Source: Candidatus Doudnabacteria bacterium
GTDB lineage: Bacteria; Patescibacteriota; Doudnabacteria; UBA920
Reading direction: 5' to 3'
Length of the DNA: 64,000 nt
Assembly: GCA_003151625.1 (NCBI GenBank)
Contig: PLYC01000007.1
Coordinates: 2,929 to 66,928, forward strand
Shown: positions 24,895-52,607 of the stretch, piece after piece
Layout: the number at the start of each line of letters is the position of its first letter
Numbering within the stretch: position 1 is the first letter of the stretch
Position numbers and translations under genes: made by a program
Notes under the pieces: model-generated
Told to the model about the DNA's origin: nothing
What the model saw: only the letters and a program-made list of their open reading frames with translations
Database searches by the model: none

Positions 24895-26022
24895 TTATTT
24901 CACCGGTGAAGGAACGTTAAGTCTCATTTCTTTTTGAACGCTGGGCATTTTGTCTTCGGGAAATTCAAAGTTTCCCCAGCCGTATTTGTCCGGGTCAAAA
25001 CCCTGGCCGCAGGTGGTTTCAATCAAAGCAGTGCAAATTTGGTAAGGGTCTAAGTTTGCGGCCGGGCGGCGGTCTTCAAGGTAGCCGCGGCCTTTGTTGG
25101 CGGTTTCCATTGGGATACGTATGCTGGCGCCGCGGTCGGAAACGCCGTAGCGAAAATCTTTGTAACTGCAGGTTTCGTGCTTGCCGGTTAAGCGCTTATC
25201 GTTATCGGCGCCGTAAACGCGAATATGCTGTTTGGCAAAGCGTCCAAGTTTTTCACAGGCTTGCTTAATAACTTCTAATCCTCCGTGTTCGCGCATAGCC
25301 CTTGTGGAATAGTTGGTATGTCCGCCGGCGCCGTTCCAGTCACCATTCATTGGTTTGGGGTCGAGTTTGGCGTAAGCGTTATATTCTTCACCCAGGCGGT
25401 AAAGTAACCATCGTGTAAGCCAAAGTTGGTCACCGACTTCCAAGGGACCCAAAGGGCCAACCTGGAACTCCCACTGTGCCGGCATAACCTCGGCGTTAAT
25501 GCCGGAAATCATCAATCCTGCCTCTAGGCAGGCTTTCAGGTGAGCTTCGATTAATGGGCGCCCATGGACTTCGTCGTAGCCCACGCCGCAGTAATAGCGC
25601 CCCTGCGGGGAAGGATAACCGCCGGTCGGCCAGCCAAACGGCCAGTCGTTTTTTCCGTAAAGCGTATACTCCTGTTCAATGCCAAACCATGGGTCTTGGT
25701 CTTTAAATTTTTCCGCGACTTGGCTTAAAACGCGGCGGGTGTTGGTTACGTGCGGCGTGCCATCGGCGTTAAGAACTTCGCACATTACCAAAAGGTTATC
25801 GCCTTTGCTAATTGGGTCGGGGATGTAGTAAACCGGTTTTAGCTGGCAGTCGGAAAAATGGCCTTCGGCCTGTTCGGTGGAACTGCCGTCAAATCCCCAC
25901 ATAGGAACGTCTTCCAATTTTCTTACCGGCCCGTTTATTATTTTAGTTTTGCTTCTTAGTTTAGCCGTGGGCTTTCTGCCGTCCAGCCAAATGTACTCTG
26001 CCATAACTTTGCCGTTTGTCAT
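24895..26022 (-). CDS. glnII: Glutamine synthetase, type II (eukaryote-like GSII)
   Basis: 375 aa. AEYIWLDG N-terminus. Conserved GS catalytic blocks GPYYCGVG and NGAGGHTN. Confidence 0.85.
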   Translation of the reverse strand: MTNGKVMAEYIWLDGRKPTAKLRSKTKIINGPVRKLEDVPMWGFDGSSTEQAEGHFSDCQLKPVYYIPDPISKGDNLLVMCEVLNADGTPHVTNTRRVLSQVAEKFKDQDPWFGIEQEYTLYGKNDWPFGWPTGGYPSPQGRYYCGVGYDEVHGRPLIEAHLKACLEAGLMISGINAEVMPAQWEFQVGPLGPLEVGDQLWLTRWLLYRLGEEYNAYAKLDPKPMNGDWNGAGGHTNYSTRAMREHGGLEVIKQACEKLGRFAKQHIRVYGADNDKRLTGKHETCSYKDFRYGVSDRGASIRIPMETANKGRGYLEDRRPAANLDPYQICTALIETTCGQGFDPDKYGWGNFEFPEDKMPSVQKEMRLNVPSPVK

Positions 26023-26047
26023 TTTTCTTTCCTTCCCCCTCCATTAA

Positions 26048-26141
26048 TCGCTGATATTTACGCTGATATGTCGCTGATTCTGAAGTTTAGATTCAGCGTT
26101 GTATCAGCGGTGGTGTTAAAAGCAGCGTTCGTTCAGCGTTT
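26048..26141. repeat. CGCTGA-box palindromic element, copy 1 (within glnII 5' leader)
   Basis: CGCTGAtatttaCGCTGAtatgtCGCTGA ... then TCAGCG x4 at approx 10-11-nt spacing. Second copy at 58621-58722 shares an identical 18-mer cgctgatatgtcgctgat. Confidence 0.55.
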
Positions 26142-26149
26142 GCAAATAA

Positions 26150-26260
26150 ATAAAACACCTTTTTTGACGGAATTCTCCCGTAAGAAAATTGGTGTTTTTT
26201 TTAACTCTAGTATTTAGTTTTACTTAATTATATTATCAGATTAAATTATTATGTCAAGCC
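26150..26260 (-). promoter_or_regulatory. glnII promoter plus leader hairpin/U-tract (attenuator or sRNA terminator candidate)
   Basis: Minus strand: TTGACA-17nt-TGaTAATAT-like -10. Then AAAAAACACC-[31-nt loop with ACGG/CCGU stem]-GGUGUUUU AUUUAUUUG, approx 130 nt upstream of the ATG. Confidence 0.4.
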
Positions 26261-26437
26261 TTAAAATTGGGTTATTTTGTCGAATTTTATAAGTTTTCCA
26301 CAAAGTAAGGGAAAGGGGGCGGCGCAAACCTGATGCTTGTTTGCGTGCCCCCGGGTTGCTGTTTTATTGGGTGCGGTGTGCACGGGGCACCCGTAAAACG
26401 TTGCCGTTGACGGAAGCGCGAACGCTTCGCTGTATGA

Positions 26438-26635
26438 TTAACTGAGAATTCCCGAGTCTCCGCGCGCTCTTTTCGGCGGCTCGATGTGAACGAATGAGCG
26501 AATACGATACCCGCTGATGGGAGTAACCACGTCATTGTCGGGCAGACATCCGATCGTGCGCATAAACGCAGCTAGCCCGTCTTCCGAAGGCGTGCTATCG
26601 GTATATACGCCTCCAAGGACGGGGCCATCACTCAT
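26438..26635 (-). CDS. Candidate small protein B (66 aa, MSDGPVLGGVYTDSTPSEDGLAAFMRTIGCLPDNDVV...)
   Basis: AGGAAGGA RBS 5 nt upstream of ATG. Translationally coupled to ORF A. Confidence 0.3.
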   Translation of the reverse strand: MSDGPVLGGVYTDSTPSEDGLAAFMRTIGCLPDNDVVTPISGYRIRSFVHIEPPKRARGDSGILS

Positions 26636-26816
26636 GGGTTCCTTCCTCTTGCGGGCTGAGCGCGCCAAGGTCTGGCACCGGCGCTGCCTGCACGTGGGGC
26701 GGCGGCAGGTACGGACGCATTCTGGTTCCTGCTACAAATTCGCGTTCGAGCGCGTCCGACACATCGCTTCCGGGAAGAATCCCGGAGTAATTATTCGCGG
26801 TCACGTTTTCCTCCAT
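26633..26816 (-). CDS. Candidate small protein A (62 aa) in the GC-rich island. Its stop overlaps the next start as ATGA.
   Basis: MEENVTANNYSGILPGSDVSDALEREFVAG... Coding status uncertain in a GC-rich background. Confidence 0.25.
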
Positions 26817-26983
26817 ATCTGGCTTACAGCCAGATTGTTTGAATTATGCAGCCTGGCAGCTGCTTGTGCCTATTGTACGCCAAAGCCAAACTTTTGGTCA
26901 AGTTAAAAAACTGACCCAAAGTGCCTTAGATCAGCGTTTAATCCCTGCCTGCCGCAGGCAGGAGCGTAAATATCTACGTAAAA

Positions 26984-28021
26984 TCAGCGGCTATCAAAAT
27001 GCGTCAACTTTTTGAACTCCGCAAATCGTTTGTTTATATCGCGGGCGGTTATTTCCTGCAGTCGTTTTGTACCTAGCTTTTCCACGGAAAAAGAGGCCAA
27101 AACCGAACCCGCCACGCAGGCGCGTTTGAGGTTTTCCCAGGAAATATTATCTGCCTTTGCCAAATAGCCAAACATTCCGCCGGCAAAGCTGTCGCCCGCG
27201 CCGGTTGGGTCGGTTACGTCCTCCAGGGGAAATCCCGGAAGATGGAAAATTTCAACCCCCCCAAGCCCCCTCTTTTGAAAAGAGGGAGAGCTTCTGAACA
27301 TCAATAATCCGTATTCGCCTTGCTTTATAATCAGCGTCGCATTTTTACCCATCATCCCCATTATATGCTTTGCCCCCTTTACCAAATTGTGTTCGCCGCT
27401 AAGCTGGCGCGCTTCGGAATCGTTTATAATAAAAATGTTAATCTTTTTTAAAACTTCAGCCAACTGTTTTGGCGCTTTTTTTATCCACAAATTCATAGTA
27501 TCCAGCCCGACAAATTTTGGCTTTTTAATTTGAGCCAGCACTTCCAATTGTAGGGAAGGGTGGATATTGCCCAAAAAAACATACGGCGATTGTTTATGTG
27601 CCGCCGATAACTTTGGCTTGAATTGTTCAAATACACCCAGTTTTGTAAATAAAGTGGTACGGTTGTTTAAATCAAAACTGTATTTGCCGCCCCAGGCAAA
27701 AGTTTGGCCGGCAGATTGTTCCAGATCCGATAAATCTATATTTTTGCCGGATAGAATCACCCGATACTTATTAGTAAAATCTTTTCCCACAGCCCCAACC
27801 AAGCTAGGTCTCGAAAAATTACTCGCAGCCAAACAAAAATAGCTCCCGCTACCGCCCAAAGTCTTGTTTACTTTCCCAAACGGCGTTTCTATGCTGTCAA
27901 AAGCCACACTGCCGACAATTAACAAATTTGAAGTTGACCCCGTTAAAGGTCCAGTGCTTTTAGGCACTGGCAATCGCCTTTGGCGATTGACTTTTAACGG
28001 GGTTGACGATTTTTTATTCAT
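26984..28021 (-). CDS. PfkB-family carbohydrate/nucleoside kinase (ribokinase-like)
   Basis: DPTGAGDSFAGG PfkB signature 2 and N-terminal GG region. The first approx 28 codons overlap a triple-hairpin palindrome (27940-28018), so an alternative TTG start at LLIVGS is possible. An internal palindrome cccctcttttgaaaagaggg lies at 27250-27292. Confidence 0.7.
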   Translation of the reverse strand: MNKKSSTPLKVNRQRRLPVPKSTGPLTGSTSNLLIVGSVAFDSIETPFGKVNKTLGGSGSYFCLAASNFSRPSLVGAVGKDFTNKYRVILSGKNIDLSDLEQSAGQTFAWGGKYSFDLNNRTTLFTKLGVFEQFKPKLSAAHKQSPYVFLGNIHPSLQLEVLAQIKKPKFVGLDTMNLWIKKAPKQLAEVLKKINIFIINDSEARQLSGEHNLVKGAKHIMGMMGKNATLIIKQGEYGLLMFRSSPSFQKRGLGGVEIFHLPGFPLEDVTDPTGAGDSFAGGMFGYLAKADNISWENLKRACVAGSVLASFSVEKLGTKRLQEITARDINKRFAEFKKLTHFDSR

Positions 28022-28192
28022 GGTCTAATATTAACATATAATATGAATTTACAAAATTTCCAATCAGCAAACATGTTAATGCCTCTTCCTTTGTGGAAGC
28101 GGCCTGATTGGAATTAATCAATTTTAAGTCTAATTGATTTCATCCACGCCCCTTTCACAGGGGGTGTTTTTGTTTTATCTAGAGGAGGAGAC

Positions 28193-28501
28193 ATGCAATC
28201 GAATGGAATTAAATTGCAAGCAGGTTTGGCCTGTTTGTATTGCAACTATGCCCTCCAGAAAAGGAGGGGATGGGAGCACGTCGATATTTGCCAAAAGGAA
28301 GAGTGTGATCCTCACGGCAGCGGGGATCCCAGGCGGTGCCCAAATTGCGGAAGCGGCCATTTTGTGTTTATGGCCGAGGCAAAAGGCAGCGTACAGTTGC
28401 AGTGTTCGGTTTGCGATTCGTTCTTTGAGTCGCGGCACCTTACTCGGCGGTTGGCCGTTATGATTCCGGACGCTCTTAGTTTATCCGGGGAGCCGCGCTA
28501 A
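28193..28501 (+). CDS. High-GC zinc-ribbon protein with four CxxC pairs
   Basis: CLYC, CQKEEC, CPNC, CSVC. RBS ggaggagac. Strong terminator immediately downstream. Confidence 0.45.
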   Translation: MQSNGIKLQAGLACLYCNYALQKRRGWEHVDICQKEECDPHGSGDPRRCPNCGSGHFVFMAEAKGSVQLQCSVCDSFFESRHLTRRLAVMIPDALSLSGEPR

Positions 28502-28536
28502 CATTAGCGCTCGTCTCCCCGGGCAACATTTTTTAT
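28485..28536 (+). terminator. Rho-independent terminator
   Basis: ccggggagccgcgctaacattagcgctcgtctccccgg followed by gcaacattttttat. Confidence 0.65.
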
Positions 28537-28551
28537 GATAAAATATAATCT

Positions 28552-29103
28552 ATGAACAGTTCGTCAGAAATAAATCCCCATATTAGTGAAGCAAGATTAA
28601 GGATCCCCGAAGCCTGGCCTCCAATCGAAACGGATATTGGCAAAGTGGCTGAATACGAAGCCAAATTAGAAGAAACGCTCAAACTTTTAGGCTGGCCGGA
28701 ATCGGATGTTTTGGACGCGTCCATGGTTTTCCGTGAGTGGCTGCTTAATGCGATGATCCATGGTAATATGGGATTATTCCAAAATAAGGGAGAGGATACT
28801 AAGGAGTGGGAAGAGAGAATTAAGACAGCTCAAAATTTACCAGAAGTCAAAGCCAAACGATTATACGTAAATATTAATGCAACTGGCAACCGTTTAACGG
28901 TGGAAATTCAGGATGAAGGCAAGGACAGCAGGGAATTTTGGCTGGAAAACAAGCAGCCCGACGCTCTCCAGGAACCCACAAAGTGGCATTCCGGGAGGGG
29001 AGGGATTTTGGCACAAGCTTTCACTAATGAAATGAGTTTTGAAAAAAATAATAAAGGCATTAAGGTGATTTTTGTCAGAGATTTAACAAAGCGCTTGAGA
29101 TAG
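28552..29103 (+). CDS. HATPase_c-type anti-sigma-factor-like serine kinase (RsbW/SpoIIAB-like)
   Basis: N-box EWLLNAMIHGN and G-box GRGGIL in a 183-aa protein. No STAS partner seen nearby. Confidence 0.5.
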   Translation: MNSSSEINPHISEARLRIPEAWPPIETDIGKVAEYEAKLEETLKLLGWPESDVLDASMVFREWLLNAMIHGNMGLFQNKGEDTKEWEERIKTAQNLPEVKAKRLYVNINATGNRLTVEIQDEGKDSREFWLENKQPDALQEPTKWHSGRGGILAQAFTNEMSFEKNNKGIKVIFVRDLTKRLR

Positions 29104-29391
29104 ACGAGGCTGTTGACATCGAATTATGACAAACGATTTTTCCCAAATAAAAAAATCCGCTTTTAGGCGGATTTTAGAGACTAGTAAAACATCAATTAGT
29201 ATTGGAATTTTCTTTTTTCAAATTAACCTTCTTTTTTCTGCTGACTAACGCATCCTCCGGCTTGCCCCGGCAAGGTGATCATAACTGACGGGGTCTTCCA
29301 TGACCCAGCCATACGGATGGATTAAAGGATCTTCCTCGTGCATTCTGTCCATATGCCCAGGCTGGGATTTGTGTTCGGTATTCCTCATAAT

Positions 29392-30909
29392 TTACCCCAT
29401 GCTATGCCTTAGTATTGCGGCTTGCTCAATTAGTTTGCCGGCGTTTTTGCCGTTGCGGAATTGTTTGTGCAGGCGAGCCGAGACGAGCTGGTGTTCCTGT
29501 TCGTTTAAATATTTTGGCGTAAACGGTTTGCCTAAATATTTTTCTATTTCTTCAACGTCTTTAATAATGTCTTTCCATGCCGGATATTTTTTGGCCAAGT
29601 TCACCAAACCTTGCCGGTAAAAAAATTTGCCGGCAAAATATAAATCATGCTTTAAATTTTTATAATGTTTTTCCAGCAATTCCAAATTGCCGGCTTTGCG
29701 CGCCGCGGCCAAACCCCGGCCGGTGCCAATTAGTTCTGGTGGGATGCCTAAGGAATAAAGCACGGCAGTAAAACTAATGGCCCTGGGCAGGCTGACTTTG
29801 CCCATGCCGCGACTGTATCCAAACAGGCCAATGTGCTGGACGCGTTCGCGCCTTTTAGGTATGTGTTTGGCCAGGTCGTTTACCAAAGGCGCTATACCTT
29901 CCACGGTTTGTTTGTAGGCGGCCTCAAATGGCTTAATGGCTTCAATTAGCTGTTTTTCTTCTTCAGCAGTCATAATTACAGCTTTACTTTTTGGCAGGCC
30001 TGTTTCTAAAGCTTTAATTGCTTTTATTACTGTGGCTTTGGGGTAATCATATCTAAACGCGCTTTGGATTGTCACCGTTCTAATTCCTTGGTATTCTTTT
30101 ATAAATCTTTCCGGCCGCAAAGGATATAAACCGCCGCGGAACGGCAAAGCCCCGCAACCAATAACCGGAAATAAATCTATTTTATGTTTTTTGGCGAATT
30201 TGGTGTAACGCGACAGTGCGATTTTTATGGCAATTACGGTTGGTACAATTCCGGAATTTAATGCCGGATCTGAGCGTGCGACATATGGCCTTAAATACGG
30301 CGGGTTAAAACCAAAAATCTTTTTGTGCTCATGCAAATATTTTTCCAGAATTTTATCCGAATTTATTATGGTGCTTACTTGTTCGAACAAAGGAACCATT
30401 AAAACGTGGTTTAGCAAACCTTTCTCAAAACGGTTAAGCGGATGTTTTAAATTGGCAATCTCCCTGAAAGCTTCCTGAATAGCGAGCATTTCCTCCGCGC
30501 TTTCCGTCATTGGTAAAATAACTTCAAACAGCGGGGGGGTGTGCATGCCCACTTGTTTTGCCAGGCCGGCGGAACTTGCTATCCCCATTAAGGCTCGGCT
30601 CATTCTAAATTCCGTCTCAACTTTAGGGTTTGGCAAACGGAAAGTCAAAAATTTTTCTTTGCCCAGGGGGTGCTTTTTAAAGTATTCATAGTATTGAGCC
30701 ATCAGGCGTTCTAAAATAGCTTCGTCTACCAGTTTGCCTTCCCAGTCCCATTTGTATTCGCTTATGCCCAAATCTGAAAAAGACAAAAATAATTCCTTGG
30801 CTTCTTCTATGGTTGGAATAAAATTTTCAGTATGCCAAAAAGGCCTGGCGGCGTGGTCTGGATGCTGGGTGGCCATGGTGGCCGGTATTTTTCTTGCGAC
30901 TTTCTTCAT
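29392..30909 (-). CDS. ppcA: Archaeal-type phosphoenolpyruvate carboxylase (PepcA)
   Basis: MATQHPD near the N-terminus (archaeal-type PEPC hallmark). Approx 500 aa. GRGG and C-terminal NGK motifs. Confidence 0.75.
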   Translation of the reverse strand: MKKVARKIPATMATQHPDHAARPFWHTENFIPTIEEAKELFLSFSDLGISEYKWDWEGKLVDEAILERLMAQYYEYFKKHPLGKEKFLTFRLPNPKVETEFRMSRALMGIASSAGLAKQVGMHTPPLFEVILPMTESAEEMLAIQEAFREIANLKHPLNRFEKGLLNHVLMVPLFEQVSTIINSDKILEKYLHEHKKIFGFNPPYLRPYVARSDPALNSGIVPTVIAIKIALSRYTKFAKKHKIDLFPVIGCGALPFRGGLYPLRPERFIKEYQGIRTVTIQSAFRYDYPKATVIKAIKALETGLPKSKAVIMTAEEEKQLIEAIKPFEAAYKQTVEGIAPLVNDLAKHIPKRRERVQHIGLFGYSRGMGKVSLPRAISFTAVLYSLGIPPELIGTGRGLAAARKAGNLELLEKHYKNLKHDLYFAGKFFYRQGLVNLAKKYPAWKDIIKDVEEIEKYLGKPFTPKYLNEQEHQLVSARLHKQFRNGKNAGKLIEQAAILRHSMG

Positions 30910-30939
30910 TAAGAGTATTATGATATATGAAAGGGGTGT

Positions 30940-31566
30940 TTGTCAAAAATGGGCAGCCAAACCGAACTTATCGCGCTATTAAAGGCAGAGGGCGTGCTAA
31001 ACAACCCGGCCGTGATTAAAGCCATGAAGGCGGTCGATCGTGCCGATTTTGTTTTGCCCCGATACCGAAGTTTGGCGTACGAAAACTATCCTTTGTCCAT
31101 AGGCTTTGGCCAGACCATTTTCCAGCCGTACACCGTGGCGTTTATGCTCGAGCTTTTGAAGGTTAAAAAGGGTGAGAAAATTTTGGAAATCGGCGCGGGC
31201 AGCGGCTGGCAAACGGCCATGCTGTGCCAACTGGTGGGCAAGGCAGGGCGGGTGGTGGCCGTAGAAAGGCTGTCGAAGTTAAAACGGTTGGAACATATTA
31301 ATCTCGCCAAATGCCATTTATATCAAAATACAATCACGTTAATACAAGGCGATGGTAAGTTGGGCTATTTGGCGGCAGCCCCTTATGACAAAATTATTGC
31401 CGCTGCAGCCGGATCAGGGATTCCCGAAGCCTGGAAACAGCAGCTGAAAATTGGCGGTAAAATTGTAGCGCCGGTAAAACACAGTATTTGGGAAATTAGC
31501 AAACTTTCGGCAAAATCCTTTAAAATAATCAGGCATTGGGGTTTTTCTTTTGTTCCTCTGGTATAA
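30940..31566 (+). CDS. pcm: Protein-L-isoaspartate O-methyltransferase
   Basis: LEIGAGSGWQTA SAM-binding motif. PIMT-family blocks. Confidence 0.8.
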   Translation: MSKMGSQTELIALLKAEGVLNNPAVIKAMKAVDRADFVLPRYRSLAYENYPLSIGFGQTIFQPYTVAFMLELLKVKKGEKILEIGAGSGWQTAMLCQLVGKAGRVVAVERLSKLKRLEHINLAKCHLYQNTITLIQGDGKLGYLAAAPYDKIIAAAAGSGIPEAWKQQLKIGGKIVAPVKHSIWEISKLSAKSFKIIRHWGFSFVPLV

Positions 31567-31615
31567 AGTTTAAATTTGTTATAATTACAGCAGAGAAATT
31601 TCTAACCTCTAACCT

Positions 31616-32161
31616 ATGAACCTCCATCCAGTGTTTGTCCATTTCCCCGTAGCCTTACTTACAGTTTACGCGTTAATGGAATTGGTTCGTTTTAAAAAAG
31701 TAATGTCCCAACCGTACTGGTTTTACCTCAAGGCGGTATTTTTAACGATAGGCGGCCTGGGGGCTTTACTGGCTTTGTATACCGGTGATATGGCTCGTTC
31801 CGCGGTTCGTCAGGGGGACTTTGTTGTAGCCATAAATAATTTTAAACAGGTTTTAAATGTCCATGAAAACTTTGCTCACTTGTCCGTGGCAATTTTTGGG
31901 CTCTTGGCGGCGAGCTATTTATTTTTGTGGCTCCAGCGGGAAAATTTTTCGGCTTTTGCGGAGAAGATAAATCTCGGCGCCCTGTGGAAATTGTTACTTA
32001 AATTTGCTCGTTTTTTTGTGGAAACCCGGTTTGTAATTTTTATGGCCTTAGCCGGCTTAATTTGTATAACCATAACCGGCGGTCTCGGCGGCGTTATGGT
32101 CTACGGCACCTCGGCCGATCCATTTTTTGGCATAATATATCATTTGTTGTTTCCATCCTAA
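31616..32161 (+). CDS. DUF2231-like membrane protein
   Basis: MNLHPVFVHFPVALL N-terminus and four TM helices. Confidence 0.4.
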   Translation: MNLHPVFVHFPVALLTVYALMELVRFKKVMSQPYWFYLKAVFLTIGGLGALLALYTGDMARSAVRQGDFVVAINNFKQVLNVHENFAHLSVAIFGLLAASYLFLWLQRENFSAFAEKINLGALWKLLLKFARFFVETRFVIFMALAGLICITITGGLGGVMVYGTSADPFFGIIYHLLFPS

Positions 32162-32191
32162 TTCATAATTTAAACTTCATTATTTATATCT

Positions 32192-32265
32192 GCGGGATTA
32201 GTACAATGGCAGTATGAGACCTTCCCAAGGTTTAGACACGGGTCCGATTCCCGTATCCCGCTCCA
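32192..32265 (+). tRNA. tRNA-Gly (anticodon CCC)
   Basis: Acceptor GCGGGAT/ATCCCGC. D-arm GTAC-AATGGCA-GTAT. Anticodon arm AGACC-TTCCCAA-GGTTT. T-arm ACGGG-TCCGATT-CCCGT. Discriminator T plus encoded CCA. Resembles E. coli tRNA-Gly acceptor and T regions. Confidence 0.85.
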
Positions 32266-32307
32266 GCCCTTTTTTAAAAGTATTTTAAAATTAACTAAAA
32301 AAATTAA

Positions 32308-32598
32308 ATGGCCATGAAAATAACAGATAGACAATATCTAACGCTAAGTGTTATTGGTTTGGTTTTTGTGCTGATGGGAACAGGGTGGTTATTTTTTTAT
32401 ACTAAATGGCTACTCTATTCACCTTTAATCGGGGGAATTATTTCAGTAATTGTACTTTTGAAAGCCAGTAAATCTGTTCATAAAAAAATTGCTTGGGTTA
32501 CTTTGGTCATTTTATTCTTAGAAATTGCTTTTGTTGGTTATCTTTATTATTCTTTGTTCCATGGCGGTTTTGATATGAATTGGCAACAGCCGGCGTAG
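32308..32598 (+). CDS. Cassette gene: 96-aa three-TM membrane protein
   Basis: First gene after tRNA-Gly. Hydrophobic. Confidence 0.45.
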   Translation: MAMKITDRQYLTLSVIGLVFVLMGTGWLFFYTKWLLYSPLIGGIISVIVLLKASKSVHKKIAWVTLVILFLEIAFVGYLYYSLFHGGFDMNWQQPA

Positions 32599-32625
32599 AA
32601 CTTAAGCAATACTTTTAACTATTTC

Positions 32626-32656
32626 CGTCCGAACATCATTCCATAGCCCGCTCCAG
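32626..32656 (+). repeat. R1: pseudo-tRNA-Gly 3'-end direct repeat
   Basis: atttccgtccgaacatcattccatagcccgctccag. The last 11 nt equal the tRNA-Gly acceptor 3' strand plus CCAG. Repeated at 33053 and 34199. Confidence 0.65.
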
Positions 32657-32701
32657 CATTATAAACAAAATAAATAAAATTTAATCTTAAAAAATAAAAT
32701 T

Positions 32702-33022
32702 ATGAAATATTTGGTTAGCAAGCGCTGGGTTGTATGGTTAATCGGAATTATTTTCACATTTTGGCTATTTATTGGAACTAGCTTAAACGGCATAAGCTTG
32801 ATAGGTATTTTTGTTGGCGCTATCTATCTAATACCGCCATTGTTTTTTGCTTTCATAAATAAGATTTTTGACAAGCGGCGTAAAGCTCAAAACCCCAATC
32901 AAAATATAAAAGATTATAATATAATTGATTTTTGTTTATTAGTCTTAATTATAATTTTTGAGGCTTTAACTGTTGGTGGAATAATCTATTTTTTGTATCA
33001 ATACTTTACACAAGTTAAATAA
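32702..33022 (+). CDS. Cassette gene: 106-aa membrane protein
   Basis: Three TM segments. Starts approx 45 nt after R1. Confidence 0.45.
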   Translation: MKYLVSKRWVVWLIGIIFTFWLFIGTSLNGISLIGIFVGAIYLIPPLFFAFINKIFDKRRKAQNPNQNIKDYNIIDFCLLVLIIIFEALTVGGIIYFLYQYFTQVK

Positions 33023-33052
33023 TTGTTACCGCCAGGTATTAGTAGCCATTTT

Positions 33053-33091
33053 AACTATTTCTGTCCGAACATCATTCCATAGCCCGCTCCA
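33053..33091 (+). repeat. R2: pseudo-tRNA-Gly 3'-end direct repeat
   Basis: atttctgtccgaacatcattccatagcccgctccaa. Confidence 0.65.
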
Positions 33092-33130
33092 ATTAAATTT
33101 TATATGTAAAAATGATTGAAACTTAAATAT

Positions 33131-33907
33131 ATGCCTGACAGTTTTGAACTATCACGCAACGCCGAACAATATTTAAATAAATCTGATTATAGGGATTCCG
33201 CCCAACAATTCCAATTAATAAAATTGCTTTTTGAATATGCAGAACAACAAGGACTTATGGCAAGTAAATACAGTGATTATCATGTTGACCTTTCTAATCC
33301 CGCGGCGGATACTTCTACTGATAATCCCAAAGCAATTTCATTGCCACCAAATTTTGCTCTCCTGGTAACAGATCAGCCGGGAGAATACTTTATTGTTGAT
33401 TATAAAAATGCCCCAAAAAAAATTACCCATCCCAAGTTTGCGTTTTTAAATGAAGAGGCGCGGGGAAGGGAAATATTATTATCAACAGCAAGAAAACAGG
33501 GACAGACAGACCAAAAAATTGGTGAAATTAAATTTGCGGAAACCAATAGCCCCGACAGTGGCAAAAAAATCGAAGTTTCAATTACCCAATCTGTAAATAA
33601 TAAAAGTTATAAAAGTATTAACGATGCCGAAGTCGTAAAGCCTCATGGTCAACTTTTGCGAACTTACGAACTTGATCCCAAAGGGATAAAAATACCCAAA
33701 CGTTTACACATAAGTAGGATTGATGAATCCTATTTTGAGAAAGATGGTCGACGCGTTCAAGTAAGATTGGGGAGGGAATTTGAAGTATCCAATAAAATCG
33801 TATCAGATAATGTGCTAAGCACCTACGAAGAGTTCTATTTGGTGGGCAGGCCGATTCAAAGGATAGTGGCTTCTATATCCATTGAGGGTCCTGTAAATGA
33901 GCCTTAA
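33131..33907 (+). CDS. Cassette gene: hypothetical soluble protein (258 aa from ATG 33131)
   Basis: Long ORF. No recognisable domain. Confidence 0.5.
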   Translation: MPDSFELSRNAEQYLNKSDYRDSAQQFQLIKLLFEYAEQQGLMASKYSDYHVDLSNPAADTSTDNPKAISLPPNFALLVTDQPGEYFIVDYKNAPKKITHPKFAFLNEEARGREILLSTARKQGQTDQKIGEIKFAETNSPDSGKKIEVSITQSVNNKSYKSINDAEVVKPHGQLLRTYELDPKGIKIPKRLHISRIDESYFEKDGRRVQVRLGREFEVSNKIVSDNVLSTYEEFYLVGRPIQRIVASISIEGPVNEP

Positions 33908-33970
33908 TCCGTTACTATTAGTATTGGAGATGCTTCAAAAGTTATATTTGAGGATAAAAATAAAGGGGTA

Positions 33971-34183
33971 ATGGTTAAAATTGACGGAGATGAAAAACAA
34001 TTGGAATTATTTAAACAGGATCCGGCTTATGCAGCTATTTTTAAAGACCCGCCGGATGTAAGCGAATTTATAAAAAATATAAAAGATAAAATACAGGTTT
34101 TGCGGGAAGATTGGGATAAGCCTGAAACGGTTTTTGGTCAAAATTTGGCCATAGAGAAACCCGGCAAAGAACTAGAAGCATAA
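33971..34183 (+). CDS. Cassette gene: hypothetical 70-aa protein
   Basis: RBS aaagggg upstream of ATG. Confidence 0.4.
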   Translation: MVKIDGDEKQLELFKQDPAYAAIFKDPPDVSEFIKNIKDKIQVLREDWDKPETVFGQNLAIEKPGKELEA

Positions 34184-34198
34184 AACAGCTAGTTGTTT

Positions 34199-34237
34199 AT
34201 AATTTCCGTCCGAACATCATTCCATAGCCCGCTCCAG
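34199..34237 (+). repeat. R3: pseudo-tRNA-Gly 3'-end direct repeat
   Basis: aatttccgtccgaacatcattccatagcccgctccag. Confidence 0.65.
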
Positions 34238-34294
34238 CCTCCGCCAAGGCTACGGCCGGCTTACGCCAACAGAAGATTTATCGAAACTTAGATT

Positions 34295-34486
34295 ATGGAA
34301 CACAAAGAAGCATCAATCATCTTAATAAGTTTGTTGAACAAAAATCTGTTTGACATCGAAGAGAAAGAGGCGGTTTTAACCGCCATCGGCGTTCTCGCTT
34401 GGACTTCGTTGTCTAAAAGCAAAATAAAAGCCATAAGAGATAAGCGCGAGAAATTAAAGAATGGCGACTTGAAACTTCAATTATAG
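34295..34486 (+). CDS. Cassette gene: hypothetical 63-aa protein
   Basis: Starts approx 57 nt after R3. Confidence 0.35.
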   Translation: MEHKEASIILISLLNKNLFDIEEKEAVLTAIGVLAWTSLSKSKIKAIRDKREKLKNGDLKLQL

Positions 34487-34595
34487 AATTTACCCGTCAA
34501 AATTTTGCGATGGAAATTTATAAAACTCCTTATTTTATTAAGCTACAAAAAAATTAAATTTGCCAAATAAATTTGGGCAAAATTTAGGCGGGTAA

Positions 34596-35039
34596 ATGAA
34601 AATCACCCTTTGCGGAAGTGCGGGGTTTGTGGTGGAGATGAATGCACTGGCCGGGCAGTTAAAAAAATTAGGACACGATGTTAAATCCATGCCGTTGAAA
34701 TTTACGGATGGAAATGGAAAAGTTTGGCAAACTTTGGATTATCATAAATTTAAAAAATCCAAACCATTTAACAATCCTGAATTTTTGAATAACCACCACG
34801 ACCGTATCCGCGAACATTTTAGTAAAGTCGCTTGGTCAGACGCGATTTTGGTTGCCAATTACGACAAAAACGGAATTACCAATTACGTTGGCCCGAACAC
34901 GTTAATGGAAATGGGGCTTGCTTTTTATCTAAGAAAAAAAATTTATTTACTTAACCCGGTTCCGGATACTCCTTGGGAAGAGGAAATGTTGGGAATGAAA
35001 CCGGTTGTTGTAAGCGGAGTCTTAGAAGTAATAAAATAA
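34596..35039 (+). CDS. Nucleoside 2-deoxyribosyltransferase-like (NDT-fold) protein
   Basis: MKITLCGSAGF N-terminus and SDAILVANYDKNGITNYVGPNTLMEMGLAFYLRKKIYLLNP match the NDT-family pattern. Confidence 0.45.
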   Translation: MKITLCGSAGFVVEMNALAGQLKKLGHDVKSMPLKFTDGNGKVWQTLDYHKFKKSKPFNNPEFLNNHHDRIREHFSKVAWSDAILVANYDKNGITNYVGPNTLMEMGLAFYLRKKIYLLNPVPDTPWEEEMLGMKPVVVSGVLEVIK

Positions 35040-35155
35040 AAGTCATCAAATCATTTATTACACCATAAAAGTAAACTGGAAGAAGGGAACCTTCTTCCAG
35101 TTTGTAAAAAAGTCAACTTTTAGATATAATTAAGGCATTAAAAGCCTTATTTTTT

Positions 35156-36445
35156 ATGGAAACAAAATCAAAGAAGCTTTCTTTAGAACCTTATAAAGGT
35201 ACGCGGGATTTTTATCCCGAGAATCAGTTCGTGCAAAATTATATTTTTGGCGTTTGGCGGAAAGTGGCTGAAAGTTACGGCTATTTGGAGTATGGGGCTT
35301 CCATTTTGGAAGAGACCGAACTTTATCGCGCTAAAAGCGGCGAAGAAATTGTTAACGAACAAACTTATTCTTTTACCGACCGCGGCGGGCGCGACGTAAC
35401 CATCCGTCCGGAAATGACTCCCACGGTGGCGCGAATGGTCGCGCAAAAACGCCGGGAGCTAAGTTTTCCCTTACGTTGGTATTCCATTCCCAACCTATTC
35501 CGTTACGAGCGACCCCAGCGCGGCCGCCTGCGCGAACACTGGCAGCTTAACTGCGATATTTTTGGAGTGGACAGCATTGAGGCGGATGTTGAGGTTATAT
35601 CTTTGGCGTACGATATGATGAAGGCCTTTGGCGCAAAAGACGAAAATTTTCAAATTAAGATTAATAGCCGTAAGTTTTTGAATTATCTTGCGGATGATTA
35701 TCTACAAATTTCCGAAGAACAAAAACACAAAACATTTAAGCTTATAGACCGGATGAATAAAATAAGCGTCGAGGAATTTGAGATACAGGGAATTGAAATC
35801 CTAAACGAGAAATTTGATAAATTAAAGAAAGTTATTTCCAGCAAGGATCCATCTGACATAGCGGGAGACAATAATACTACAACAGGAGTTTCAGATATTT
35901 TAAATTTAATAACTTCTTTAAAAAGAAAAGGTATTGTAAATGTAGTTTTTGATCCAACCATAATGCGCGGGTTTGACTATTACACCGGCACGGTTTTTGA
36001 AATGTATGATACCAACCCAAAAAATCCCCGTGCACTTTTTGGCGGTGGCCGGTACGACGACCTCGTGGGCATTTTTGGAGTGGAAAAAGTTTCTGGTATT
36101 GGTTTTGGCTGGGGGGATGTAACTACACGTGATTTTTTGGAGACTTATAATCTTTTGCCTCAATATCACCCTCCGGTACAGTTATACATCGCGCATCTTG
36201 AAGGGTTTATGGAAGAGGCAAATAAATTGGCAGATTACCTTCGTAAGCAGGGCGCCAATGTGGAAGTGGATTTAACCGACCGCCAAGTTTCCAAACAAAT
36301 AAAAACTTCAGACAAAGAAAAAATTCCATTTGCCTTGGTAGTGGGCGAAGATGAAGTAAAAACCGGAAAGTTTAAGGTCAAAAATTTGGCGCAATCAACT
36401 GAAACAGAAACCACTCGTGATGGTATTGCCGCTATACTTAAATAA
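35156..36445 (+). CDS. hisS: Histidyl-tRNA synthetase
   Basis: Class II motifs: RDVTIRPEMTPTVAR (motif 2 region), GGGRYDDL (motif 3 region), C-terminal anticodon-binding domain. Confidence 0.9.
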   Translation: METKSKKLSLEPYKGTRDFYPENQFVQNYIFGVWRKVAESYGYLEYGASILEETELYRAKSGEEIVNEQTYSFTDRGGRDVTIRPEMTPTVARMVAQKRRELSFPLRWYSIPNLFRYERPQRGRLREHWQLNCDIFGVDSIEADVEVISLAYDMMKAFGAKDENFQIKINSRKFLNYLADDYLQISEEQKHKTFKLIDRMNKISVEEFEIQGIEILNEKFDKLKKVISSKDPSDIAGDNNTTTGVSDILNLITSLKRKGIVNVVFDPTIMRGFDYYTGTVFEMYDTNPKNPRALFGGGRYDDLVGIFGVEKVSGIGFGWGDVTTRDFLETYNLLPQYHPPVQLYIAHLEGFMEEANKLADYLRKQGANVEVDLTDRQVSKQIKTSDKEKIPFALVVGEDEVKTGKFKVKNLAQSTETETTRDGIAAILK

Positions 36446-36466
36446 AGCGGCAAGAAAATATTCTTT

Positions 36467-37093
36467 ATGTTGTCATCAGAAGAACAAATAACTCTGGATA
36501 CATATAATAATATCGCCCCGCAATGGGTAAGCAAAAATTATGTTTTGGATTTTTGGCTTGAGGAATATCAAATATTCCATAGTTATTTATCGGCTGGTAA
36601 AATTATTGATCTTGGCTGTGGTGGGGGGAGGGACAGTGTTTGGTTTAAAAAAAATGGTTACGATTATGTTGGTGTGGATATATCAGAGGGTATGCTGGCT
36701 GAAGCCCATAAGCGTCATCCCGACACTCGCTTTATGCAACAGAGCTTGTATGACCTAGATTTTCCTAAGAACAGTTTCGATGGTTTTTGGTCAGCGTGCT
36801 CGTTTTTGCATATCCCAAAAGAACGGATAAATGTGGTTTTGGGTAATATCAAAAATATTTTGAAGCCCGGGGCTGTTGGTTTTATTTCTATTAAGCAAGG
36901 GACAAAGTTTGTAAAAAAAGCATGGCACGAAAGCGGAAGAGAAAGATTCTTTGCCTATTATGAACAGGATGAGTTTGCAAAAATATTAAAAGACCAGGGT
37001 TTTGATATTTTGCAAACAGCTATAAGGTCACCGGAAAATTCTGATCAAGACGAAACGTTTTTAATTTTTTACGTAAAGTTAGTCACAAAATAA
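36467..37093 (+). CDS. Class I SAM-dependent methyltransferase
   Basis: IIDLGCGGGRDSVWF (motif I) and VGVDISEGM. Confidence 0.65.
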   Translation: MLSSEEQITLDTYNNIAPQWVSKNYVLDFWLEEYQIFHSYLSAGKIIDLGCGGGRDSVWFKKNGYDYVGVDISEGMLAEAHKRHPDTRFMQQSLYDLDFPKNSFDGFWSACSFLHIPKERINVVLGNIKNILKPGAVGFISIKQGTKFVKKAWHESGRERFFAYYEQDEFAKILKDQGFDILQTAIRSPENSDQDETFLIFYVKLVTK

Positions 37094-37506
37094 TGGAACT
37101 CCAGGTCGGCGTTAAGGCGCTGTTAAAAAATAAAGAAGGGAAGTATTTACTGCTTAGGCGGAACCCAAAAAAGTATCCGGAAGTCGGGCCGAACTGGGAT
37201 ATTATAGGCGGCAGGATAAATCCGGGTTTGCCGCTTTTAGACAATCTGAAAAGGGAAATAATGGAAGAAGCGAGATTGGATTATCATGGAACGCCAAAAT
37301 TAGTGGCCGCGCAGGATATTTTAAAAATTCCCGACCGCCACGTGGTTCGTTTAACTTTTACTGGAGATATGGAAGGGGAACCAAAAGTTGACGAAGAACA
37401 TTTGGAAGCCAAATGGTTTACGGCCGCCGAAATAAAAGCAATGAGTGTAACCGAACTTGATAGTTTTTTTAAGGAACTAATTGATAAAGAAAATATTAAT
37501 TTATAA
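37093..37506 (+). CDS. NUDIX hydrolase
   Basis: Nudix box GGRINPGLPLLDNLKREIMEEARL. ATGA-type overlap with the upstream stop. Confidence 0.7.
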   Translation: MELQVGVKALLKNKEGKYLLLRRNPKKYPEVGPNWDIIGGRINPGLPLLDNLKREIMEEARLDYHGTPKLVAAQDILKIPDRHVVRLTFTGDMEGEPKVDEEHLEAKWFTAAEIKAMSVTELDSFFKELIDKENINL

Positions 37507-37511
37507 AATTT

Positions 37512-37730
37512 ATGGAAATGCGGGGCGATGTCAGGGTTTATTCCGGAATTTTTCTTATTATTTTGGCCGCTTTGGCCGTGATTATTTTTTTAAAGCCAAA
37601 GGCAAAAACTACCAAACCAATAACGACTTTTGAGGAATGCCAGGCCGCAGGCTATCCGGTAATGCAAAGCTATCCGCCGCAGTGTACATTGCCCAACGGA
37701 AGATTTTTTGTTCAGCAGGTTGTTGAATAA
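37512..37730 (+). CDS. Small exported hypothetical protein
   Basis: TM/signal followed by Cys-containing short domain. Confidence 0.3.
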   Translation: MEMRGDVRVYSGIFLIILAALAVIIFLKPKAKTTKPITTFEECQAAGYPVMQSYPPQCTLPNGRFFVQQVVE

Positions 37731-37762
37731 AAGTAAGTTTAGAATTAAGTTGATATAATCAT

Positions 37763-37800
37763 CGACCTGTAAAATTCACGGCCGTGAATTTTACAGGTCG
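37763..37800. terminator. Palindromic hairpin of the TTCACGGCCGTGAA family
   Basis: cgacctgtaaaattcacggccgtgaattttacaggtcg. Centre identical to 13811 hairpin, outer stem different (covariation). Confidence 0.5.
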
Positions 37801-37914
37801 TGTAATATTTATAAACCCTGTTAGAAACTATTTGGCTAAAGGACAGGCCAGAAATTTTTAAGAAATAAGCGCGTAAATCCTAAGAAGAATAAAAAAATAG
37901 TCATTCCTAACTGG

Positions 37915-38772
37915 ATGAAGAAAATTCTCGGGGTAATTATTATATTAATTTTGGCTGTAGCCACCTGGCACTACCGTTTTTTCGAGCAGAAATTTATCCA
38001 AAAACTACCGGAGCTAGCCAAGGCGCCTTCTGTGGCTAATATTGTCCAGGATATTTCCACGCCGCCGCCTTTGGTTGGACAAAGGAATAATCCAAACTCC
38101 AGCTTAACTAGAGCCGGCGTAATTACATGGACGAATACTAACCGTGAACAAAACGGCGACCTTTTGCCGCTCACGGAAAATTCACAACTGGACAAGGCGG
38201 CGCAATTAAAGCTGGCTGATATGTTTAAACAACAGTATTTTGAACATATAAATCCGCAGGGAGTTGGGCCGGCCGATTTGGCCAAACAGGCCGGATATAA
38301 TTTTATTTCTGAAGGAGAAAATTTAGCGTTGGGAAATTTTACCGACGACCAAGATCTTCTCACAGCCTGGATGAACAGCCCCGGCCACAGAGCCAACATT
38401 TTAAACGTTAAATACCAGGAAATTGGCGTGGCCGTTGGTCAGGGTCTGTATGAAGGGCATAAAACTTGGCTGGCGGTTCAGGAATTCGGCAAACCGGCCA
38501 GCAGTTGCCCAACCATAGATTTAAATTTAAAAGCGCAGGTCAATAGCTTGCAGGCGGATGTGAATAAATTAAGCCCCCAACTGGCTTCGTTAAAAAGTCA
38601 GATAGATTCCGCTTCCCCCAGAACCCAAAGCGATTATAACTCTTATAACCAAATTGTCGCTCAGTACAACAGTATGGTGGGAATTTACAACAATAAAGTG
38701 GATATTCTAAAATTAGTCACCGGCCAATATAACAGCGAGGTTAAGGCGTACAATGCGTGCCTGGGTAGTTAG
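37915..38772 (+). CDS. CAP/SCP/PR-1 domain secreted protein with C-terminal coiled coil
   Basis: Signal/TM. CAP motifs GHYTQ-like GHRANILN and HFEHINPQG region. C-terminal Q/N-rich heptad repeats. Confidence 0.6.
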   Translation: MKKILGVIIILILAVATWHYRFFEQKFIQKLPELAKAPSVANIVQDISTPPPLVGQRNNPNSSLTRAGVITWTNTNREQNGDLLPLTENSQLDKAAQLKLADMFKQQYFEHINPQGVGPADLAKQAGYNFISEGENLALGNFTDDQDLLTAWMNSPGHRANILNVKYQEIGVAVGQGLYEGHKTWLAVQEFGKPASSCPTIDLNLKAQVNSLQADVNKLSPQLASLKSQIDSASPRTQSDYNSYNQIVAQYNSMVGIYNNKVDILKLVTGQYNSEVKAYNACLGS

Positions 38773-44828: not shown

Positions 44829-44935
44829 GTTAATTTTTAGAGTCATCCTTACGCCAGTGAGGTGACTTTTGCCCAATGCATCGGACAAATGAAATAGACG
44901 ACTGGCAAACAAACCCACTTATAAGGAGGGGGTTT

Positions 44936-45736
44936 ATGCAACAACATAAGTTTTCTACGCTCACCATCGGTGCGATGGTGATTTTGGCCATGCTCTTGAC
45001 CGGTTGCGGTAAGGGCACGGATGTTGTCACCGGTCATCTGCCGGTGTCAGCTGCGCTTGCTCAAGTTCGGGAGGCAATCGTACCCCTACCGCCGGCCAAA
45101 CGGGCGGCGTACATGCAGCAGCATTTCCCTGATTTGGGTCAGCAGCTAGTCTGGTTCCTGCGGGAACACAACACGCTGCCGAACGGCGCCACCGTGCAGA
45201 ACGTTGAGTTCTTTGCCGGTTCCTTGGAGAAGGTGAAAGCCGAGGACGGCAACGGCGTGACCAACGAGGGGTTCTTCGAGAACCAACTCGTGGCGCGCGT
45301 CCACATCGTGGGGCAGCAAAAGCCGGTGGATGTCATCGTTTCTTGTCTTAATGGCGCGTTTAATCTGCCGGGTAATCTCGTACAGGCTGGCATGACACCG
45401 CTCGGAACCCAGACCCCGGTCGAAAGGTTCACCATTGCCAACGGCGAGGGAATTGTTCCCCATGTGGGGTACATCACCGCAGTAGAGCTTGCCCGAAAGC
45501 ACCACATTATGCTGTATCGTGGCAAGAAGCAGGATCCCGTCCATATCATCTCCTACGACGAGGCGCTGAAGGCGGACACCGACCAGACGCAGATTACTGC
45601 CGGGGTGAAGCCGGGCGACAAGTTTGACCTCATCGCTGGCGCGTATACTCCGGCGCCTAAGGCGGCGCCTCGCAAGCACCTGCGCGCTCCTGTTGGGAAG
45701 CGGGCGAAGGTGAAGCGGATCTCGTTTCGCCGCTAG
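44936..45736 (+). CDS. High-GC lipoprotein, hypothetical
   Basis: Lipobox LLTGC. Strong RBS aaggagggg. Approx 60% GC versus AT-rich flanks. Terminator follows. Confidence 0.55.
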   Translation: MQQHKFSTLTIGAMVILAMLLTGCGKGTDVVTGHLPVSAALAQVREAIVPLPPAKRAAYMQQHFPDLGQQLVWFLREHNTLPNGATVQNVEFFAGSLEKVKAEDGNGVTNEGFFENQLVARVHIVGQQKPVDVIVSCLNGAFNLPGNLVQAGMTPLGTQTPVERFTIANGEGIVPHVGYITAVELARKHHIMLYRGKKQDPVHIISYDEALKADTDQTQITAGVKPGDKFDLIAGAYTPAPKAAPRKHLRAPVGKRAKVKRISFRR

Positions 45737-45767
45737 TAGTGACCGAATACTATTGGGAGGCCACCCC

Positions 45768-45809
45768 CGGGCGATCACACAACACGTTGTGATCGCCTGA
45801 TTTTTTTTG
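45768..45809 (+). terminator. Rho-independent terminator
   Basis: gggcgatcacacaacacgttgtgatcgcc plus T8. Confidence 0.7.
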
Positions 45810-45916
45810 CCAAAGAAAAATTTCGAGATGGTACAAAATAGAACCAGCCGATAAACCCGTCTCGACCGGCTCATCGAGCCGAGGTGGATCGGCGCGCTAC
45901 ATTTAATTAAATTAAA

Positions 45917-52606: not shown

Positions 52607-52607
52607 C

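Follow-up and report, generated by a model that had tools for sequence, protein, structure and literature searches.

Integrons carry their gene cassettes beside intI, which encodes a tyrosine recombinase, and their attC sites are imperfect inverted repeats that fold in single-stranded form, with a conserved structure and a variable sequence. The 3' ends of tRNA genes are a classical integration site, and in classical tRNA islands the direct repeats are copies of the tRNA 3' end, typically 15-60 nt identical. Tandem accretion at tRNA 3' ends, as in cis-mobilizable elements (CIMEs) and, e.g., in the case of ICESt1 and ICESt3 of Streptococcus thermophilus, leaves direct att repeats that bound successive integrase-less units. 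Xer-dependent elements (pdif modules and IMEX, the integrative mobile elements exploiting Xer) are small modules with a short site that depend on a conserved host recombinase in trans and form tandem arrays. Finally, Coleman et al. in 2006 reportedly described tRNA-flanked hypervariable islands in Prochlorococcus in which partial tRNA 3' ends are repeated inside and an integrase is usually absent. Here, we present an analysis of a 64,000-nt stretch of DNA from an uncultured, ultra-small bacterium of Candidatus Doudnabacteria (contig PLYC01000007.1; hereafter the window), in which small gene cassettes are arrayed behind the tRNA-Gly(CCC) gene and each cassette is closed by a short repeat, which we call R, ending in the 3' tail of that tRNA.

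The genomes of candidate-phyla-radiation bacteria are very small, recognised mobile elements are few in them, and their route to strain-specific genes is an open question. In the literature searched, we found no description of the R repeat and nothing on integrons, tRNA-linked cassettes, or GIY-YIG nucleases in Patescibacteria that fits this locus; group I introns described in Patescibacteria tRNA genes are insertions in the anticodon loop and unrelated to R. We lean, with some reserve, toward the reading that the locus is an integron-like or tandem-att cassette array built by site-specific recombination at the tRNA 3' end, with the enzyme acting in trans.

Results

All positions given without further specification are those of the window, and numbers beginning with L denote the related loci that were fetched. 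Three near-identical repeats (R1 to R3) follow tRNA-Gly(CCC) on the plus strand, as the initial annotation of the window had proposed from the sequence (Table 1). The 36-mer ATTTCCGTCCGAACATCATTCCATAGCCCGCTCCAG matches at 32621-32656 and 34202-34237 with 0 mismatches and at 33057-33092 with 2, and it has no match in 100 shuffles of the window. An alignment of all copies extends R ~10 nt further in the 5' direction (ATTTTAGCTAT, tTTTAaCTAT), giving a total length of ~45 nt. At its other end, R was said to finish in the acceptor 3' tail of tRNA-Gly, and this is what we found: the last 9 nt of tRNA-Gly, CCCGCTCCA, form the core common to the tRNA and R1 to R3, with R1 and R3 terminating in CCCGCTCCAG, i.e., the end of tRNA-Gly plus the next base, and R2 terminating in CCCGCTCCAA. 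The segments delimited in this way between the tRNA and R3 measure 391, 436, and 1145 bp, and the array proper (32192-34237) comprises three cassettes with four open reading frames (ORFs). We counted 3-4 hydrophobic segments in each of the 96-aa and 106-aa proteins, while the 258-, 70-, and 63-aa products, the last of which is encoded beyond R3, have none. No product of a Gly cassette has a match in Pfam. The GC content is 0.29-0.36 in the Gly cassettes and 0.34-0.50 in the cassettes of a sister array behind tRNA-Gln(CTG), compared with 0.43 in the window.

The initial annotation also stated that a gene follows soon after each repeat with the spacing seen behind the tRNA, counted five cassette genes, and extended the array to 35050. 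The distances from R1, R2, and R3 to the next ATG are indeed 45, 38, and 57 nt, compared with 42 nt from the tRNA to the first ATG; however, the gene after R3 is a flank gene. A same-locus homologue of the 63-aa ORF is present in L004, and the 147-aa ORF has same-locus homologues in L012, L013, and L017. Because of these homologues in relatives and because both ORFs are located after the last repeat, we assign them to the conserved right flank and place the end of the array at 34237. Two of the five genes counted as cassette genes belong to this flank, outside the array, and the third cassette holds two ORFs. We also observed that everything between the tRNA and the last R, both included, has opposite orientations in L004 (6449-6966) and the window (32192-34237) relative to conserved flanks, which contain PCMT and phosphoenolpyruvate (PEP) carboxylase on one side and the 63-aa gene and hisS on the other side.

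The window contains two tRNA genes based on ARAGORN and Rfam, and the second, tRNA-Gln(CTG), anchors the sister array. The two arrays had been described as having the same architecture at independent sites. The architecture is indeed the same, i.e., tRNA-anchored, with variable cassettes and pseudo-3'-end repeats; independence, by contrast, is not what the repeats indicate. The Gly repeats (ATTTCCGTCCGAACATCATTCCATAGCCCGCTCCA) and the Gln repeats (ATTTCCGTTCGAACATCGTCCCACAAGGCCAGCCA) have the 38-nt non-tRNA module TTCCGTYCGAACATCRTYCCA in common and differ only in the last 9-10 nt, which correspond to the acceptor 3' strand plus CCA of the local tRNA. Because both repeats carry TTCCGTYCGAACATCRTYCCA, we conclude that the Gly and Gln arrays represent one system. 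The module pattern matches the window five times, in all cases inside the two arrays. Moreover, because the Gly and Gln versions are closer to each other than to their own tRNA, R is not a decayed copy of a host tRNA. Identity between the Gln repeat and its tRNA locus covers CAGCCA and ~35 nt of downstream terminator, while identity between the Gly repeat and its tRNA locus covers 9-10 nt only (CCCGCTCCA).

Using a profile search and a second pattern, we identified four additional repeats in the Gln array, R' (TTCCGTTCCMACTTGGTMAAATAAGGCCAGCCA), which have the same 5' box and tRNA-Gln tail as R but a different middle 15 nt. The R' copies stretch the Gln array to ~55840, directly upstream of recO, and thereby to six units and approximately twice its obvious length. 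They close a cassette for a PMT-type glycosyltransferase (52785-54209), a cassette for a 176-aa protein, and a cassette at 55118-55795, between the R' copies at 55074-55117 and 55796-55839, in which the sole gene is on the minus strand. Units in L012 also have genes on both strands. Because of the minus-strand gene in 55118-55795 and the two-stranded units in L012, we conclude that R acts at the DNA level and is not merely an element of the 3' untranslated region.

The repeat is conserved between genomes to an extent that neither the neighboring genes nor the cassettes are. In blastn comparisons of window positions 28000-38000 with the fetched loci, R is 93-100% identical across genomes, while PEP carboxylase, PCMT, hisS, and the genes that follow are 67-77% identical, and the cassette genes give no alignment at all. 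Within R, a stretch of 21 nt has a sequence conservation of 90-100%. In an all-against-all blastp comparison, none of the four ORFs in the Gly cassettes has a homologue in any locus, and the 258-aa protein matches only itself among 5.8 billion proteins. The cassettes are thus not core genes, which would have spoken against a variable array: none is common to the syntenic loci of relatives, and the 258-aa protein is an ORFan. Cassettes elsewhere encode small membrane proteins, lipoproteins, a PIN toxin with its antitoxin, a DUF2283 pair, a MazG-like protein, and kinases, and the gene adjoining R differs in every case. One cassette is common to L008 and L018, where it is 88% identical, compared with 71-76% for the housekeeping flanks. 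Altogether, the cassettes are compact, each has a site at its 3' end, and their content is variable between relatives.

Exact scans with the conserved 21-mer identified 12 stretches in contigs representing one genome per species, 13 in metagenome contigs, and none in IMG/VR. Approximately 20 other loci carry R behind tRNA-Gly or tRNA-Gln, mostly in metagenome-assembled genomes of Candidatus Doudnabacteria. Two R contigs are labeled otherwise, one as Saccharibacteria and one as 'Legionella'; the latter is syntenic with the window (143-aa gene, then hisS) and probably misbinned. In 13 of the 13 arrays with a tRNA in the fetched stretch (the two in the window and those in L001, L004, L006, L009, L010, L013, L015, L017, L018, L021, and L026), R is located downstream of the tRNA and on the same strand. 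The tRNAs ahead of R are tRNA-Gly(CCC), tRNA-Gly(TCC), and tRNA-Gln, and L023 has one copy of R with a tRNA-Ala-like tail (GTCCACCA). Matches to the 21-mer in L005, L007, L014, L016, and L024 (Planctomycetaceae, Flammeovirgaceae, and three metagenome contigs) were rejected as chance matches inside unrelated genes. The concern that R might be abundant at loci unrelated to tRNA genes was not borne out, and R was found only downstream of tRNA genes or within arrays. In exact-pattern scans of IMG/VR for R and R', we obtained 0, 0, and 2 matches, and both matches were to the shorter pattern, without the flanks of R, and due to chance; blastn of R against phage and plasmid collections gave no match. 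Similarly, we found no related autonomous element in IMG/VR, the phage and plasmid collections, or the loci.

To compare the junctions, every copy of both tails was listed with its flanks. The Gln tail is present in five combinations, i.e., R with terminator 1 (window), R with terminator 2 (L019), R' with terminator 2 (window), R' with terminator 1 (L019), and tRNA-Gln with terminator 1 (window). The Gly tail joins the tRNA to a leader hairpin or to terminator A (L015) and R to the leader or, twice in L012, to terminator A; L015 and L012 are homologous from a point within the shared tail onward. This free combination of left and right modules across the tail points to exchange within the 9-10-nt core, and ordinary recombination of the tRNA with R by RecA would need a longer core. 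The last R is followed directly by a terminator or leader hairpin in the window (R3), L004, L008, L012, L015, L022, and L026, and the sequence after the last R looks like a native tRNA flank.

R itself has no detectable structure. Neither R, alone or together with its flanks, nor the reverse complement folds better than shuffled sequences (z of -0.4 to +0.8 on both strands), and because there is no structure beyond these controls, we rejected a minihelix resembling that of a tRNA, a hairpin of the attC kind, and an intrinsic terminator. We found no upstream partner able to pair with the acceptor-like tail of R. An intron-containing or split tRNA, with R as its 3' exon, was considered and rejected based on the lack of T-stem pairing and of an upstream partner and because the tRNA is complete. 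For a Xer/dif-like site, no convincing dyad was seen. Rfam at the gathering threshold and at E<10 reports the two tRNAs only and nothing at R. The suggestion of one transcript per cassette received no support, as a consensus scan of the spacers revealed no promoter or terminator above background.

Separately, in L002 (~976-1005) and L017 (~957-928, minus strand), a leader-type hairpin, TCCGAC-TTCG-..-CTAC-GTCGGA, is inserted inside R right after TTCCA, with compensatory differences between the stems of the two hairpins. These insertions suggest that a small palindrome is mobile and targets TCCA.

The hairpin behind R3 in the window belongs to a wider family of 'leaders' with a stem starting at the CCA and the general form CCAGNN...NNCTGG-CTTACGCC, in which 3 of 9 pairs show covariation among 14 copies and which has no match to an Rfam family. 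In relatives, the leader precedes a gene for an 80-aa putative GIY-YIG nuclease (PF01541), and leader and GIY-YIG gene are located directly after tRNA-Gly (anticodon CCC, TCC, or GCC) in many Patescibacteria lineages. Among the fetched loci, they are found right after the CCA of tRNA-Gly in L001, L013, L018, L021, L032, L035, L043, and L048 and after R in L026. Two decayed GIY-YIG genes are present in L012, and leader-only relics are present after R3 in the window and after repeats in L008 and L015; using tblastn, we found no GIY-YIG gene in the window. In Doudnabacteria, wherever an intact GIY-YIG gene adjoins the tRNA 3' end directly, 1-2 genes come next, with R behind them, and in L018 the leader and the downstream 70 nt are duplicated, with one copy after the tRNA and one after R2. 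In lineages other than Doudnabacteria, a displaced pseudo T-arm and acceptor follow the GIY-YIG gene, and L035 also has an R-like repeat 1.6 kb downstream. The leader/GIY-YIG module may belong natively beside tRNA-Gly, or it may be a homing element through which the junction becomes a hotspot of recombination; because the Gln arrays are without it, it cannot explain those arrays.

We made a few additional observations on tRNA-Gly sequences in the fetched loci. Displaced pseudo-3' ends (T-arm and acceptor) of tRNA-Gly are located downstream of GIY-YIG or R in L035 (4306-4340 and 5580-5605), L048 (~3400-3440), L026 (~3540-3600), and L006 (2824-2860); two of them finish in CGCTAAT rather than CGCTCCA, and L026 repeats ~60 nt of the tRNA downstream flank. 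In L017 (1363-1572, minus strand), the anticodon loop of a tRNA-Gly is interrupted by a 20-nt GC hairpin, and within the interrupted gene lies a second tRNA-Gly gene, which is complete and has 17-nt inverted repeats around it. In L046, a tRNA-like sequence is interrupted by a GC hairpin of similar kind.

Table 1. Features of the Gly array, its right flank, and the Gln array in the window
Feature	Position	Strand	Description
tRNA-Gly(CCC)	32192-32265	+	Array anchor; ARAGORN; Rfam RF00005, 59 bits; CCA encoded
Cassette 1	32266-32612	+	ORF 32308-32598, 96 aa, small membrane protein; GC 0.33
Repeat R1	32613-32656	+	5' box, conserved 21-mer, and tRNA-Gly tail; nhmmer E=7e-15
Cassette 2	32657-33047	+	ORF 32702-33022, 106 aa, small membrane protein; GC 0.29
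Repeat R2	33048-33092	+	2 mismatches; base after tail A, not G
Cassette 3	33093-34193	+	ORFs 33131-33907 (258 aa, ORFan) and 33971-34183 (70 aa); GC 0.36
Repeat R3	34194-34237	+	Final repeat of the Gly array
Hairpin 'leader' relic	34234-34267	+	CCAGCC-TCCG-CCAAGG-CTAC-GGCCGG-CTTACGCC; stem starts at CCA of R3; motif scan
Conserved right flank, not cassettes	34295-35039	+	63-aa ORF 34295-34486 and 147-aa ORF 34596-35039; then HisRS (hisS) at 35156
tRNA-Gln(CTG)	49480-49553	+	Anchor of the sister array; ARAGORN, Rfam
Two Gln-type R repeats	51027-51068, 51744-51783	+	38-nt module and tail GGCCAGCCA; tRNA-Gln terminator hairpin after each
Four R' repeats	52707-52750, 54235-54278, 55074-55117, 55796-55839	+	Profile search and second pattern

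Regarding other parts of the window, the first three Gln cassettes (49554-52751) have a GC content of 0.48-0.50, compared with 0.43 for the window, and a 3-kb stretch at 44876-48040 with a GC content of 0.51-0.59 contains a 286-aa lipoprotein-like orphan and a 689-aa ORF (45971-48040). This high-GC DNA may be a recent acquisition. The 143-aa protein of a Gln-array cassette has a homologue (43% identity) in another lineage (L053 6740-7387), where the gene is located directly downstream of tRNA-Ala and without R. Between glnA and a PfkB kinase gene, ~960 bp (26023-26983) have a GC content of up to 0.54 and only implausible ORFs, and Rfam has no match in the intergenic stretch 26000-27000.

Discussion

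According to the cassette-array reading, unrelated DNA segments would have been inserted successively at the 3' end of tRNA-Gly, each closed by a portable R. Two parts make up R, the conserved 38-nt module, which is not derived from tRNA, and a tail of 9-10 nt with the same sequence as the 3' acceptor strand and CCA of the target tRNA. Recombination within the tail would join the 5' end of the incoming segment either to the tRNA or to an R already in place, and the newcomer's own R would recreate the target, giving rise to the order tRNA, cassette, R, cassette, R, and so forth until the last R and the original tRNA flank. With a tail matching tRNA-Gln, this module would also build the second array in the window. 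R would have the role of attC or of a tandem attP junction, and the tRNA end that of attI or attB. The enzyme would be encoded outside and away from the arrays and act in trans, with a chromosomal tyrosine recombinase as the most likely candidate. The data directly show the anatomy, distribution, and conservation of the repeat, the turnover of the cassettes, and the shuffling of junctions at the tail; from these, we infer exchange by a dedicated site-specific recombinase and movement of the cassettes as units. Among the analogies considered, the array would work most like CALINs, i.e., clusters of attC sites without an integrase, or CIME arrays that are served in trans.

Several observations weigh against this reading. 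R lacks dyad symmetry and a fold and is, therefore, unlike attC and unlike a classical core-type site, and the Gly cassettes have no conserved sequence to the right of the tail. In the stretches fetched for L008 and L011, R has no tRNA on its own strand, and in L009, L010, and L017 the tails of R mismatch the local tRNA. The left edge of the cassette shared by L008 and L018 is not at an R. We saw no circular intermediate, empty site, or strain variant, and in an exact protein look-up, 3 of 3 contigs with the sequence of the window's DUF2231 protein have one gene arrangement (78.9-kb scaffold). Finally, no integrase, transposase, or HUH protein was found by Pfam among nearly all window ORFs of at least 70 aa, with a few ORFs judged by eye only, including the 689-aa ORF at 45971-48040, which we read as an H+-pyrophosphatase. 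The Pfam scans revealed housekeeping functions only, among others SmpB, ArgRS, IleRS, GlnA, PEP carboxylase, HisRS, MnmA, RecO, UvrD, and KsgA. Similarly, precomputed annotations of the related contigs contain no integrase, inspection of ~70 locus ORFs by eye revealed no recombinase, and the recurrent locus ORFs have no recombinase match in Pfam.

We tentatively consider a broader interpretation, which we think possible rather than probable, that R is the site of a previously undescribed gene-capture system of Patescibacteria, in which an exchangeable tail would fit the module to any tRNA 3' end (Gly, Gln, and possibly Ala) and one enzyme in trans, other than an integron integrase, would serve all sites. 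This enzyme could be a housekeeping recombinase or part of a nuclease-plus-repair route linked to the hairpin and GIY-YIG gene. If such a capture system exists, several tRNA genes of a tiny genome would become integron-like platforms. At both tRNA genes in the window, a repeat that is nearly unchanged across genera marks hypervariable orphan cassettes, which, if the interpretation is correct, would amount to a compact, sequence-defined capture platform. The R module together with a tRNA tail provides a search key for mapping accessory genes, and the enzyme could be found by phyletic correlation. A fixed module with an exchangeable, target-matching tail is also a design that is possibly of interest for targeted insertion.

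Alternatively, the arrays could have grown by GIY-YIG homing. In this scenario, the hairpin and the 80-aa nuclease module would target tRNA-Gly 3' ends, repair of the double-strand break would copy the nuclease gene, its cargo, and a cleavage-resistant R serving as the right homology arm, and the nuclease gene would decay later. The positions of the intact GIY-YIG genes and leaders directly after the CCA of tRNA-Gly in eight loci and after R in L026, the decayed copies in L012, the leader-only relics in the window, L008, and L015, the order of tRNA, intact GIY-YIG gene, 1-2 genes, and R in Doudnabacteria, the displaced pseudo T-arm and acceptor behind the GIY-YIG gene in other lineages, and the leader and 70 nt repeated after the tRNA and R2 in L018 are all consistent with this scenario. 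A precedent is SegB of phage T4, reported as a GIY-YIG homing endonuclease in a tRNA cluster (PMC2330249); here as there, a GIY-YIG gene is immediately beside a tRNA, and intact, decayed, and lost copies would fit a homing cycle. Unlike SegB, the putative nuclease here has only 80 aa, corresponding to the catalytic domain alone, without a DNA-binding domain. Moreover, the gene is absent from the window and from every Gln array, although the Gln arrays use the same R module; in L032 and L043, the tRNA, leader, and GIY-YIG gene are present without R, and the module is perhaps simply the native flank of tRNA-Gly; and homing requires homology to the right of the cut, while the exact match between R and the tRNA is just 9-10 nt. 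We regard homing as unlikely.

A further alternative is that the repeats are scars of integrase-carrying islands or prophages at tRNA genes and that later deletions left remnants between the att scars. Integration at the classical tRNA 3'-end site and the foreign GC content of the cassettes agree with this idea, as do the Gln repeats, in which conserved sequence to the left and right of the core resembles the attP junction of elements in tandem, and the decayed tRNA 3' fragments beside R-like repeats in L006 and L035. However, not one of >35 R-bounded units examined contains an integrase remnant, and a different gene is beside R in every case. Scars should decay, whereas R is a distinct module common to the Gly and Gln arrays and 93-100% identical across genomes. 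In addition, R with its flanks is not found in IMG/VR and has no match in the phage or plasmid collections. Altogether, such scars appear quite improbable in comparison to the cassette-array reading.

Equally doubtful is that R is an RNA or host-function element, i.e., an mRNA 3'-end, stability, or processing signal mimicking a tRNA 3' end, in arrays formed by ordinary homologous recombination and DNA uptake: a co-oriented ORF ends <90 nt upstream of R in ~30 of 35 copies, R is C-rich and unstructured, its conservation across lineages is like that of a functional motif, and its 45 nt would suffice for RecA to exchange copies occasionally, but there are units with their sole gene on the opposite strand, R has no Rfam family match and pairs with no upstream sequence and, therefore, cannot form a tRNA-like substrate, and right-hand modules have been exchanged between tRNA and R junctions with an identity of 9-10 nt, which is too short for RecA.

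How does the cassette array compare with the described systems? Similar to Xer-dependent elements, it consists of small modules bounded by a short site and placed in tandem at that site; unlike in those elements, R has no dif-like dyad, the modules are in direct rather than inverted orientation, and a tRNA end serves as the anchor. We saw no Xer gene here, in analyses that did not include a dedicated search for one. As in the Prochlorococcus islands, strain-variable orphan genes are located behind tRNA genes in a streamlined genome; however, while the repeats in those islands are tRNA copies, only 9-10 nt of R match the tRNA and the remainder is a separate conserved module. Because no integrase was found inside the >35 units examined, the array is not a classical tRNA island or prophage.

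The likeness to chromosomal integrons and CALINs is more extensive. Cassettes are short, mostly co-oriented, and mostly orphan, with a site at the 3' end and an unconserved 5' end; they include toxin-antitoxin cassettes as well as small membrane proteins, lipoproteins, and orphans, and from one relative to the next their content is hypervariable. The array also shares with CALINs the lack of an integrase gene beside it. Nevertheless, the array is not a true integron, as no intI is adjacent and attC structure is absent. The anchor here is a tRNA 3' end, while that of integrons is attI next to intI; R conserves sequence and not structure, without the R''/L''-L'/R' inverted repeats or a fold, and, while attC is variable, R is nearly identical across genera. 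Also unlike integrons, some units here are multi-gene units with genes on both strands, and no IntI was found. The likeness to tandem accretion in CIMEs lies in the direct repeats of tRNA 3' ends that bound integrase-less units, and the Gln repeats are of the attP type, with left arm, core, and right arm. The units here differ from CIMEs in that they have a size of 0.4-1.5 kb and unrelated contents and in that no related autonomous element was found; moreover, unlike in CIMEs, the same left arm is used at two different tRNAs, and the tail alone changes.

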